From IMG/VR virus record IMGVR_UViG_3300030228_000019: a stretch of 64,000 bases of DNA, one strand, 5' to 3'. Positions 1 through 64,000 of the stretch are shown here, one piece after another. Below the pieces are notes generated by a model. That model made no database searches and had not been told where the DNA came from. It saw only the letters and a list, made by a program, of their open reading frames with translations. Each line of letters starts with the position of its first letter. Positions within the stretch are counted from its first letter, which is position 1. The DNA comes from a virus. The translations under genes and the position numbers were made by a program.

Positions 1-167
1 ATACTGCAATACAAATCAAGAAGTGTATTATTTTGTAATTTATAAATGTCTGTTGGCTTAACCATTACCTGTGCATCAATTAATGTTTTTATTAAATCAA
101 AAAATTCATTTTTTGTCATTTTATCAATAATTATTATAAAAAGAATGTTTAAAATAAAAAACAAATA

Positions 168-175
168 TTTAAATA
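168..175 (+). promoter_or_regulatory. Archaeal TATA box (TTTAAATA) upstream of ORF 207
   Basis: TTTAAATA about 30 nt before the ATG; the same motif lies 20-35 nt upstream of starts at 21145, 29521 and 30887. Confidence 0.55.
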
Positions 176-206
176 TATAAAATATTAATATTATAGTATT
201 GATAAT

Positions 207-839
207 ATGGCTGGAATTAAAACAGTTTTGCTCATTATTTTAATAGTGGCAGTAATTTTTGCATATTTGTATATATTTCATCCAAGTTATATTGGTAAAA
301 AATTAACAACTACTACTGTTTTACCATCAAATAATACAATAACTAATGCCTTTAATAATTATACAACAACAGCAGAAAAAGAATTTAATGTTTCTAATTC
401 AAGTGTTGTTTCAATTTTGCCAAACAAAGAACCCTATTTATTAAATGAGGTTCTTGAGTCTAATCCCAACCCAATACTTATTATCAATTATACTTATAAT
501 GGAAAAATATATCAGTTACCACAATGGTTTTCTCTATCATTTTCAAATGTAACAGCAAATCTTCCAAATTTTAATGGTCAACATGTTCAATTTTTATTTT
601 TTATGAACAAAACAGCAGCAATAAATTATACTGGAAATCCAGCTAATAGCACACCAATGATATTTAACTACAGTGTTGCTGTGAATGGAACTACTTATAA
701 ATTTACATTTATAAATAATAAAAATAATAAAATAATATCTGTCCTTTCAATTCCATTTAATAAACATCAAGTATTTTATACAATTGGTTTTGAATATAAT
801 AAAACTGTTTATTTAATTCCAGACATAGCAATTGGTTAA
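207..839 (+). CDS. Membrane-anchored secreted protein
   Basis: N-terminal TM helix; Asn/Thr-rich with many N-x-S/T sequons. Confidence 0.8.
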   Translation: MAGIKTVLLIILIVAVIFAYLYIFHPSYIGKKLTTTTVLPSNNTITNAFNNYTTTAEKEFNVSNSSVVSILPNKEPYLLNEVLESNPNPILIINYTYNGKIYQLPQWFSLSFSNVTANLPNFNGQHVQFLFFMNKTAAINYTGNPANSTPMIFNYSVAVNGTTYKFTFINNKNNKIISVLSIPFNKHQVFYTIGFEYNKTVYLIPDIAIG

Positions 840-844
840 TAAAA

Positions 845-3800
845 TTATGTTCTAACATTTTCATATAATGCATAGCCATTAATTGATGAGCCAGATATTG
901 ACCTTGTTGAACTTTCAAGAATATACTCAGATTTTGATATATATAAAAGGTTTGTAGTTCCATCATTATTTACCAGTTTGGTGTTTGCAAACCCTCTAAT
1001 ATAAGCATCAGTTTTACACACCTTATTATTACAAAATCCATATGATACACCACTTGGTTCAGAAGGAATTGTTGTATTGAAAGTTCCTGGTGCTATACTG
1101 ATTTGTGTGGTGGTATTATATATAATAATTCCAGCAACTTGTGAATCAGCTACTCTTTCAGGGGTTCCACCTATAATACCACAACTATGATAAAAATTCT
1201 TTGATGTTATAAGATAATTATATAAAGATTGATACTGGGTGACAAAATTGTTGCAAGTGCTTGGTGGTGAATCAGTAATATTTATATTATAACTTTCAAA
1301 TATAGGAACAGTATAACCATAAAATAAATTAAAGGTAGCTGGTTCCACTGGTAAAATTGAATAACTATTTGATAAATTAAAAAAAGTATCATAGCCTGGT
1401 CCTATATTTAAATTTTGCAGAGATTGTATTGTAACAAGTGGTGTATAACCAAATGTTTTAGTATATGCAGAGATTCCTGTGTTTCCACTAGGACCATTAA
1501 TGTCATAATTAGCAGTTCCATTTGAAAATAATGCTGTTGAAATAAGACCACTTTTAGTTACAGTTGAAACCTGTCCATTAATATTTCCAATAACTAAACA
1601 ATTATCAAGTATTCCAGAATCATAACATTTTGTATAATTTCCATTATTTGAAATTGTCTGTGAACTTGAAACAAAATGATTATTATTGGTGTTGTAAAAT
1701 CCTTCTGTTAGGGAGTATGTGGTTCCACTATACAAGTTAATATATTTAGAAGGGGCTGGTAATACAAAAAGATGTTGTGTGGCTATACTTGTGTTTTTTA
1801 TATAACTGCTATCAAAAGAAGTAAAGATGGGACCACCTGTAATATTATAAGGAACAGTTGTCCATCCAAGTGTTGAAAAACTATAAGGTTGACCAACTAA
1901 ATTTGTTGTTATATTTAGTGGAACAAGGTAAATTGCAATTATAGTATAATTATTTTTATCTGACAAACCAGATATTGTTTTACCAGTTACACCAGAAATT
2001 ATTTCATTTTTTATACCACTAACATATGTTTTTGTTGTATTATCATAAATGGTTAATAAATAATTTTTATTTTTTAAATAATTTGAATAATAAAATTTTA
2101 CTGGATTAATATCTATACTATATATTGTTGGTGAACCCTCTAAATAATAAGTTGTTATATTTGTATATGGTTCACTGGTATTAACTGTTGTATAACCAAA
2201 ATTAGTAGAAACAGCATGAGGAATTAATGAAATATCACCAATACTATCAGGATAGTTATACACAGTGATTGTTCCTGTTGATTTTATTATTTTATTAAAA
2301 AGCACTGATACATTTACAGATATAGTATCAATATATGTTTTATTTATTTTTGGATAACTTTGATTAAACAAGATTGCTGCTTCTTGTTCTGTTATATTAA
2401 TTGGTAAAGAAGTTGTTGATGTTGGTGGTGCTTTGTTTGATTTCAAAACTGTTCCATTTTTTAAATAATATGTAAATTGTATTGTGCTTTCTGGTAAATT
2501 TATTGAATAATTTTGTGAATTATATACAAATTTGTTTTTTGTATTTATATAAAAATATGTTGTATTATCACCAGGTATATCTTGGAATATAGCACCATTT
2601 GAATTTCCATACACTGGGTCAAAACTGTTACCCCAGTTTGAATGTGCAGACACCTGATAAAATGAAAAATTATCATTACCACTGTTTAATTCAGGATTTG
2701 AATACATTTCTATTTTTCCAGCATTATTTATATAAACAGTCAAATTATTTATATTTAAATTTGATGTTGTAAGATTATTAGCAACTGCTGTTGGATAAAT
2801 ATCTGATATTAACACATTTTTCCAAGCAGCATTTAAATACCCTGTTCCTGTCACATGACAGTTATTTCCACTGCACCCACCAGTTCCACCACCAGTGGGT
2901 GGAGGTGGTGGTATTACATGATAGTTTGCTATTATTGTAACATTTTGGCAACCATTAAGTGCTTTCCAATTGTAATTAAAACTTTCTGAATTAGAATTTG
3001 AAATTTTATCACCATTGCAATAAACATTTTGTGATACAAAACTTCCACTGCTTGAAGAGGTTGCTGCAAATGTCCATGTAAATCCAAATGTTGTATTTAA
3101 AGTATTAGCTGAAAATACATTTGTTTTATTAAATGTAAAAGTATAAGGTGTTGCTGTATTTGTTTGATTAGACCAGCCTATTAATGAATTTGTTGGTATT
3201 GCATTTGCTGAAAATGTTGTTGAAACACCACCTAAATTACTGGTTGCTTCCCATGAAATTGTTGGTAAACTAATCTTGAAATTAGCAGTATAGTTTGTTG
3301 CATTTACAACAGTAAATGTATAAGGATTTTGTGTTATTGTTGTTCCAGCATGGGTCCAATTACTAAAAGCATAATATGTATTTGCATTTCCAGTTATTAT
3401 TACTGATTTTCCTTTTGGAACAAATTCACTAATATTATTTCCTGTTATAGTTTTATTATTATATGGTGTATATATACTAACATTTCCTCTTGAACTATTT
3501 GAAGTTTTTACACTAATATTATATTCATATTCATAATCAGCTTGTAAGGTGCAGGGTGCAAATGATAATGATTTAACTGTTTGTGATGGATTAAACAAAT
3601 TAAATCCAGTTGAACATGATAATGAAACAGATGTGTTAAAATCAACAAATGCTAATGCTTTGGTCTTTGTTTTTGTTAAAATAGCAGGATAATTAAAAGA
3701 ATAAGGTGCTGCATCCTGATACATTGTATATGGTAAATTTCTTACAGATTGTTGAATACAAAATCTTGAGGCATCAACACCACAAGTAATATTTGTATCA

Positions 3801-62555: not shown

Positions 62556-62676
62556 AAAAGATAAAAACTTTTTATTAAATTGGTTTGCAGTATAGCAATT
62601 GATTATTATAAAGCTAAATTTAATAAATTAAAAAAGTATCTGTAATTTTAAATTAACACATTGTCTTATTTTATGA

Positions 62677-63060
62677 GTGACACCAGTGAACTCTTTCAAA
62701 AAACATCAGTTTATAAAAAGCATATTTGAAACAGTTACCATTGGTGCTGCTTTAATTAGTATATATTTGTTTTTAATAACAAATTTTGTAAACATAGGAT
62801 TACCAATTGTTATTATTACTATTATATTTTCTTTCATTATTTTTATGGCAATTATTTTTGTATTTTATAGCAACATAACAATTGAATGGTATAATTTTAA
62901 AGAGGAAATTGAATTTGAAATATCATCTTTAAAAACCACAAAATTATTTCTAAAAACAATGATAGAATTTTCTCAAAAGCCAAGACTTAAAAAAGAGTTA
63001 AAAAAAGAGATAAAAGAAATAAACAGCAATATCAGAAAATTGAATAAAAAACTTATTTAA
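62677..63060 (+). CDS. Two-TM membrane protein
   Basis: Two hydrophobic helices and a basic coiled tail. Confidence 0.65.
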   Translation: MTPVNSFKKHQFIKSIFETVTIGAALISIYLFLITNFVNIGLPIVIITIIFSFIIFMAIIFVFYSNITIEWYNFKEEIEFEISSLKTTKLFLKTMIEFSQKPRLKKELKKEIKEINSNIRKLNKKLI

Positions 63061-63326
63061 ACAGAGGAAGACTTTATTTGACTCCAATATGGGTTTTCAT
63101 CAGGTTTTACAGTTTTTATTCCATCAAAAAGCAGTTTTTCAATTTTTGAATAATCAATTTCAATATTTTTCTTTCTTAAAGATTCAACTTCAATAACAAG
63201 AGGTTCAACCAGCCAATCTTGATAAGTATTTTGGTGTAAGTTCATTTTTAGGTTTTTATTTATTTTTTTTGTAACATCTAAAAGTCTGTTTATTTCTTTA
63301 TCTGGTCCATTATTCATAAAAGTCAC
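63057..63326 (-). CDS. Hypothetical protein
   Basis: 89-aa ORF. Confidence 0.55.
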   Translation of the reverse strand: MTFMNNGPDKEINRLLDVTKKINKNLKMNLHQNTYQDWLVEPLVIEVESLRKKNIEIDYSKIEKLLFDGIKTVKPDENPYWSQIKSSSV

Positions 63327-63431
63327 ACAATACTATTGTATTATTAAATATTTATATGTTTCAGTTTTCACTAAAACACTTTAATACACAGTTGTATGGT
63401 ATTAGAGCAACAAACAGAAAAAAATAAACAA

Positions 63432-63998
63432 TTAGTCAAATATTTTTTCTAATATTACTTGTATTTCTTTTTCTCCTTCTGTTTCATTATATATATTTTT
63501 TATTTCATAATCAAATGGAAGGCTGTCTATTTCAGTTTCAGTTGGGTCATTAAGTTCAATTTCTGTTGGTTCTCTTCCATATATTTCCTTATATTTTTTT
63601 ATTCTATTTTTAATATCAGGACTTATTTTAACAACAAATAACTTTCTTTGTGTGTTTCCTGTATATAAAAGATATGAAAGTTCATTCATAAATCTAACAT
63701 CATCAACTATAAAAGGAAATTGTTTTTTTGTTGCAATACTGGTTGCAAGATATTTTATCCAAACATCAGGGTCAATTTCTCTCATTTTTGAACCAAGTTG
63801 CTGCAATAATCTTCTGTTTTTTTCCTTCATACCAAAAACATCTTTTGCAACATCTTTTAGTTTTGCTGCTATTGAAACTTTATAAGCTGTAATACCTTGC
63901 TTTTCTAATTCTTCTTTTAATTTATCAGCATAATATGTCTTTCCAGCAGCCATGTGTCCTATAAAAACTACTCCATCATATTTTATTTGTTTATCCAT
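63432..63998 (-). CDS. Phage-type deoxynucleoside monophosphate kinase
   Basis: GHMAAGKT, A.KLK, RRLLQQLG..MR..DPDVWI, IVDDVRFMNE. Confidence 0.82.
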   Translation of the reverse strand: MDKQIKYDGVVFIGHMAAGKTYYADKLKEELEKQGITAYKVSIAAKLKDVAKDVFGMKEKNRRLLQQLGSKMREIDPDVWIKYLATSIATKKQFPFIVDDVRFMNELSYLLYTGNTQRKLFVVKISPDIKNRIKKYKEIYGREPTEIELNDPTETEIDSLPFDYEIKNIYNETEGEKEIQVILEKIFD

Positions 63999-64000
63999 TT

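Follow-up and report, generated by a model that had tools for sequence, protein, structure and literature searches.

Absence of the CG dinucleotide and of several short palindromes from an extrachromosomal element of acidophilic archaea and from its relatives

We analyzed a 64,000-base stretch of DNA from the IMG/VR record IMGVR_UViG_3300030228_000019, referred to as the window herein, which has a GC content of 25.5% and contains 0 CG dinucleotides versus 1,041 expected from base composition. The window is part of a self-replicating extrachromosomal element of acidophilic archaea, which is probably transmissible. The same element is present in Joint Genome Institute (JGI) assemblies of 116,406, 116,446, 116,617, and 118,155 bases, the start points of which differ between samples. 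Since the sequence of the window breaks off where the 118-kb contig ends and continues close to the beginning of that contig, the genome appears to be circular or permuted with a size of ~116-119 kb. The sequencing runs that carry the element are labeled mine drainage metagenome (2011-2015). The features of the window that we refer to below are the following, with coordinates in window positions.

1..64000, unstranded: CG-free stretch, ~54% of the ~116-119 kb replicon, from word counts
4637..16209, unstranded: transfer-like block, syntenic in all five CG-free lineages
5688-8690: VirB4/TraG-like ATPase (Pfam P-loop_TraG/DUF87/AAA_10)
11613-14267: FtsK/HerA-like ATPase (Pfam)
14284-16209: T2SSE-type ATPase (Pfam)
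16204..17172, minus strand: FEN1/XPG flap endonuclease, archaeal/eukaryal type, conserved across all of the lineages
19442..20116, plus strand: 224-residue protein, the C-terminal half of which has a predicted PD-(D/E)xK nuclease fold (AlphaFold2 pLDDT 95.3)
32418..32493, plus strand: tRNA-Lys(UUU), no CG, T loop TTCAAAT (Rfam, 41.6 bits)
35421-35960: NDK (Pfam)
36188..36272, plus strand: tRNA-Leu(CAA), no CG, T loop TGCAAAT (Rfam, 51.3 bits)
52867..63998, unstranded: nucleotide-pool gene region (Pfam)
52867-53457: DUF1599, "nucleotide modification associated" (Pfam)
54404-54994: NT5C deoxynucleotidase (Pfam)
58526-58999: dCTP deaminase/dUTPase-like protein (Pfam)
63432-63998: match to the phosphomevalonate-kinase family, read as dNMP-kinase-like (Pfam)

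The element combines a VirB4-type ATPase, a coupling-type ATPase, and a pilus/membrane set, the combination by which a conjugative type IV secretion system (T4SS) is recognized, and pilin-like genes accompany the T4SS-like ATPases. Other Pfam matches in the window are to an SNF2 helicase, Fic, and an RNase T-type exonuclease, and immediately beyond the end of the window lies the gene for the element's own family-B DNA polymerase (949-955 residues), after which come genes for an M16 peptidase and a helicase (contig L030:1-388 and homologous loci). Upon reading the upstream regions by eye, we found TTTAAA boxes ~30 bases ahead of the starts and GGTGAT Shine-Dalgarno-like motifs. Together with FEN1 and a weak match to Hjc, these indicate an archaeal host. 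A eukaryotic giant virus was also considered, as the nearest clusters to FEN1 in the ESM Atlas are from Nucleocytoviricota, and was rejected on the TTTAAA boxes, the GGTGAT motifs, and the prokaryote-like gene order. The nucleotide-pool genes could tilt pools toward A/T for a genome of 25% GC, or could feed a DNA base modification.

The absence of CG is not shared by the other dinucleotides made of C and G. In the window, GC occurs 1,295 times, CC 1,453 times, and GG 1,235 times, or 1.24-1.31 times expectation, while CA reaches 1.33 and TG 1.28 of expectation. A first-pass annotation, made from the letters alone, had claimed that CG is wholly absent while GC, CC, and GG are common, and had estimated ~25% GC and ~1,000 expected CG; our counts agree with it on each of these points. 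It had further claimed that CGN Arg codons, NCG codons, and NNC-GNN junctions do not occur and that intergenic DNA is equally CG-free, which our codon and non-coding counts confirm. We counted codons in 77 open reading frames (ORFs) that make up 86% of the window: Arg is encoded 359 times, always by AGA or AGG and never by CGN, and TCG, CCG, ACG, and GCG do not occur. Ahead of a codon that starts with G, there are 2,496 codons with C or T in the third position, and none of them has C, versus a C-ending share of 14-22% when the next codon starts with A, C, or T. Hence CG removal is free of amino-acid cost, with AGR used for Arg, synonyms for NCG, and T chosen at C|G junctions. The non-coding DNA of the window (9.4 kb) likewise contains 0 CG versus 110 expected.

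RNA genes follow the same rule. The tRNA-Lys and tRNA-Leu genes are real tRNA genes as judged by Rfam, and both are free of CG as the first-pass annotation had noted, with the T loops GGTTCAAATCC (tRNA-Lys) and GGTGCAAATCC (tRNA-Leu). Separately, ARAGORN reports a third tRNA-like gene at 36114-36184, immediately 5′ of tRNA-Leu, which has an abnormal two-base anticodon and is without Rfam support.

A count beyond the window had been suggested as a check. We found 0 CG in 13.6 kb of flanking DNA, consisting of 4.3 kb upstream (contig L016) and 9.3 kb downstream (contig L035), which brings the element DNA examined to 77.6 kb. Using the VirB4-containing block as a marker in a search for relatives, we found contigs of shared gene order whose VirB4-like proteins are 66, 58, 49, and 47% identical to that of the element. 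In each of these four related lineages, which come from further acidic sites, CG, GATC, GTAC, and GGCC all count 0. The CG-free lineages come from California mine drainage, a Kunashir Island pool, and other metagenomes; the source of one of them, Faust Lake on Kunashir Island, has a pH of 2 and a temperature of 48 °C (PMC8468003). Pooled over the five lineages, 148.8 kb of DNA contains 0 CG versus 2,466 expected, which gives a 95% upper bound on observed/expected of 0.0012. A bacterial relative of 27% identity (contig L027) has an ordinary CG content, 335 versus 446 expected. An artefact of sequencing, assembly, or data handling, to which we assign a negligible probability, is already refuted: JGI, ENA, NCBI, and Logan assemblies agree across sites and years, and the very same contigs carry, next to the element, CG-normal DNA (129 CG in 3.6 kb). 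In full-text literature searches, we found no report of a natural replicon >100 kb without any CG and no description of a CG-free natural genome or of the present element.

The classical account of CpG depletion is mutational, by CpG methylation and subsequent deamination with no selection against CG, and the excess of CA and TG in the window is what this account predicts. Classical methylation-deamination typically leaves roughly a fifth of the expected CpG, however, whereas the depletion here is total, and 0 of 2,466 would require a ratio of decay to creation in the thousands. The tRNAs are cleared too; GATC and GTAC, palindromes without a C-to-T logic, are also at zero; and the 77.6 kb of element examined yielded no methyltransferase. 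Polymorphism speaks to the same question. Among strain contigs, none of 53 single-nucleotide polymorphism (SNP) sites creates a CG, where 3.7 are expected from the observed mutation classes, and none of 34 variants in other runs does so. There are 9,722 TG and CA positions in the window's lineage alone, and because protein identities below 50% suggest a many-fold synonymous turnover, which we assume, these positions had ample chance to turn into CG. We therefore consider mutation alone very improbable and conclude that purifying selection against CG is still acting. The first-pass annotation had suggested active counter-selection, for example by a host- or self-encoded system. The support is for the first half of this suggestion, selection rather than plain methylation-deamination, and comes from the total loss in five lineages (47-66% identity), the codon junctions, the non-coding DNA, the tRNAs, the lack of CG-creating polymorphism, and the equally total loss of GATC, GTAC, and GGCC alongside CG.

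To describe what is selected against, the other missing words are informative. The window contains 0 GATC versus ~105 expected, 0 GTAC versus ~97, and 0 GGCC versus ~35, with CTAG and CATG at 0.28 and 0.45 of expectation and with zero occurrences of GATATC and GTATAC. The strongly purged words are palindromes without exception, whereas no non-palindromic 4-mer falls below 0.35 of expectation and the lowest non-palindromic 5-mers lie at 0.28-0.35. Among pooled 6-mers, the observed/expected counts are 0/29 for GATATC, 0/11 for CTGCAG, and 1/19 for GTATAC. Some losses differ between lineages. CTAG is at 0/36 in lineage D and 0/25 in lineage E (contigs L003 and L024), and AGCT is at 0/35 in lineage E, whereas both words persist in the window's lineage; CTAG and CATG are purged only in part in some lineages. 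Both the confinement of the loss to palindromes and its equal extent outside genes are as expected if duplex DNA is recognized symmetrically, in the manner of type II restriction-modification enzymes, and do not fit selection at the RNA level or on translation. The lineage-specific purges look like the shifting restriction repertoires of hosts. Among palindromes, GATC and GGCC are reported to show the strongest under-representation in acid-mine genomes (PMC2745766), and Thermoplasmata methylate GATC, CATG, CGCG, TCGA, and CGCC (PMC11033074). We thus read the pattern as an extreme restriction-type avoidance on double-stranded DNA that includes CG and that implies a CG-directed activity in the hosts, an interpretation to which we give an even chance.

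CG itself differs from the palindromic 4-mers in one respect. Of the 1,041 CGs expected, no more than 290 would fall in the palindromic contexts ACGT, TCGA, CCGG, and GCGC, and the remaining ~72% would lie in non-palindromic NCGN contexts such as ACGA/TCGT. As such, ordinary 4-bp sites cannot account for the loss. This bears on the possibility that there is no single reader of CG and that many systems with CG-containing sites (CGCG, TCGA, CGCC, CCSGG, type I/III) sum to a total loss, with AT-biased mutation rarely restoring CG. The element does avoid a very broad range of palindromes, several CG-containing specificities are known in Thermoplasmata (PMC11033074), and CG-creating mutations are rare at 25% GC. 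Partial and shifting selection should nonetheless spare some CGs in each lineage, as it has spared part of CTAG and CATG in some of them, and none of the 2,466 expected is left in any of the five. Given this and the share of non-palindromic contexts, we regard a sum of systems as unlikely, and the exact zero in five lineages favors a reader of bare CG over summed CG-containing specificities.

We propose that the cells visited by this element family probably hold an activity triggered by bare CG in any context. This activity could take the form of a CG-specific restriction-modification pair or, in a second version, of a CpG methylase in one host and a methyl-directed nuclease in the next. In its specific form, our proposal is that acidophilic archaea, perhaps Micrarchaeota or Thermoplasmatales partners, carry a DNA-directed defense that reads CG alone, unmethylated or methylated, and that the family escaped it by deleting CG throughout its genome; we advance this form tentatively, with less than even confidence.

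Two bases are a natural length for a protospacer-adjacent motif (PAM) and not for a restriction site, and the loss is total and common to the whole family. This raises the possibility that a host CRISPR (clustered regularly interspaced short palindromic repeats) system uses CG as its PAM, in which case a CG-free element would escape sampling and targeting. Yet the selection on each PAM is weak and a total purge is hard to reach by this route, and GATC, GTAC, and GGCC are lost as well, as is typically seen with restriction. We also considered CRISPR spacers as the source of 20-24 base matches between the window and other contigs, and rejected them as chance on match length, database size, and unlike flanks; the short matches are at chance in both length and number. 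A role of CG as a PAM is therefore quite improbable.

An agent encoded by the element itself was part of the original suggestion. Here, the element would encode a frequent-cutting CG nuclease directed against host or competitor DNA, much as chloroviruses use 2-4 bp cutters, and would protect itself by lacking the site instead of methylating it. Within the window, the one restriction-like candidate is the conserved PD-(D/E)xK nuclease gene at 19442-20116, the lack of a methyltransferase in the examined DNA agrees with self-protection by site loss, and the nucleotide-salvage genes could recycle degraded DNA. We take the protein to be conserved in at least lineage D, where a cluster of its homologues lies on contigs equal in size to the lineage-D VirB4 contigs. 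The 224-residue ORF has no match in Pfam, PHROGs, or PDB sequences. By predicted fold, its nearest neighbors are archaeal Hjc Holliday-junction resolvases, with EcoRV and HincII as weak matches only, and homologues of 32-35% identity are carried by viral contigs whose CG content is 0.58-1.0 of expectation. For these two reasons, a self-encoded CG cutter is without positive support. Moreover, a single enzyme could not account for the purge of at least four to six different words, and the pili and T4SS-like genes suggest coexistence with a host and not its destruction. We judge a self-encoded cutter to be improbable.

A candidate host emerged from a variant of the element into which at least 3.6 kb of CG-normal DNA is inserted (contig L019:9733-13314), with 129 CG, a GC content of 41%, and CG at 0.87 of expectation. 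This insert encodes a Tsp45I-like endonuclease, an N4/N6 methyltransferase, and small ORFs. It interrupts a gene for a surface protein of 1,127 residues ~2.5 kb before window position 1 (junction at contig L016:21226), and the junction, which covers one end of the insert only, is present in four assemblies and in some samples. A chromosome-like contig (L040/L041) encodes a methyltransferase with 93% identity to that of the insert, and the named relatives of a geranylgeranyl reductase on this contig are almost all from Micrarchaeota. Through this weak link, Micrarchaeota-like DNA would be the best candidate host. On the Micrarchaeota-like contig, CG stands at 0.71, GTAC at 0.35, CTAG at 0.35, and GATC at 0.57 of expectation. 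A host chromosome equally free of CG would have pointed to a host-wide mutational bias, as the first-pass annotation had recognized; with CG at 0.71 in this one fragment, such a bias is not supported for the candidate host.

Beyond its five CG-free lineages, the element is isolated in the databases. The T4SS-like proteins have a remote similarity to those of known plasmids (22-30% identity), and among phage and plasmid records the only matches at the protein level are remote, to Firmicutes VirB4 and CpaF ATPases, with no DNA match to the element. A scan of IMG/VR found no relative of the element; a scan of genome contigs returned only Bacteroidota TraG-like matches of 24-26% identity; and the sole match in the metagenome contig scan was the Kunashir contig. 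No capsid family is found among the Pfam or PHROG matches of the element proteins, and no relaxase family matches any ORF scanned, with ~39 kb of the replicon outside the scan. Strains of the element differ by an indel, since the window is ~2.4 kb longer than the JGI contigs Ga0188180_0003 and Ga0188178_10004 when measured by coordinates from the VirB4 gene to the gene at 63 kb; this indel lies between ~19 kb and 63 kb of the window. As a separate observation, a 600-base Logan contig at ~3x the depth of the element matches 117 bases at window positions 1049-1168 and then continues into unlike, CG-containing sequence, and a similar short match lies near position 16118. There appears to be another replicon that shares short segments with the element.

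Several points weigh against a host defense that reads CG alone. To our knowledge, no enzyme has a restriction specificity for the 2-bp sequence CG, and none was found in the present analysis. The CG-normal insert, the junction of which is present in four assemblies, implies that DNA with CG can be tolerated for some time at least. In addition, the host is a candidate suggested by one fragment, and the DNA examined amounts to 77.6 kb, ~39 kb short of the whole replicon.

Whatever the agent, evolution has left in this pattern a sharp footprint of a DNA-recognition activity in a poorly cultivable archaeal community, and the element family offers a case from nature of a coding genome that, with its tRNAs, is entirely free of CG. 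If a reader of bare CG were behind it, this would be a new class of specificity, of 2 bp and not described for restriction systems, with possible use as a tool and as a prokaryotic parallel to CpG sensing in animals.

Taken together, the loss resembles restriction-site avoidance in phages and plasmids, in which short palindromes are missing from both strands of coding and non-coding DNA, non-palindromes are unaffected, and some losses are lineage-specific. Three marks of such avoidance are found here: palindromes are depleted, non-palindromes are spared, and synonymous, non-coding, and RNA-gene sites are all affected. In the cases of avoidance that we know of, the sites are 4-6 bp long and correspond to an identified enzyme of the host, whereas a dinucleotide is lost here, absolutely, over >100 kb and across deep divergence, and the host is no more than a candidate. 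With the CpG-methylation depletion of vertebrates, their small viruses, and Mollicutes that have M.SssI-type methylases, the element shares the loss of CG and the excess of TG and CA. Those depletions are partial, whereas the element is at zero with its tRNAs included, has also lost GATC, GTAC, and GGCC, and has no CpG methylase that we could find in the 77.6 kb. Lastly, chloroviruses methylate their own DNA and destroy that of the host, unlike the element, in which no such enzyme or methylase was identified; but the 2-4 bp sites of their frequent cutters and nickases show that very short recognition sequences are biologically usable.

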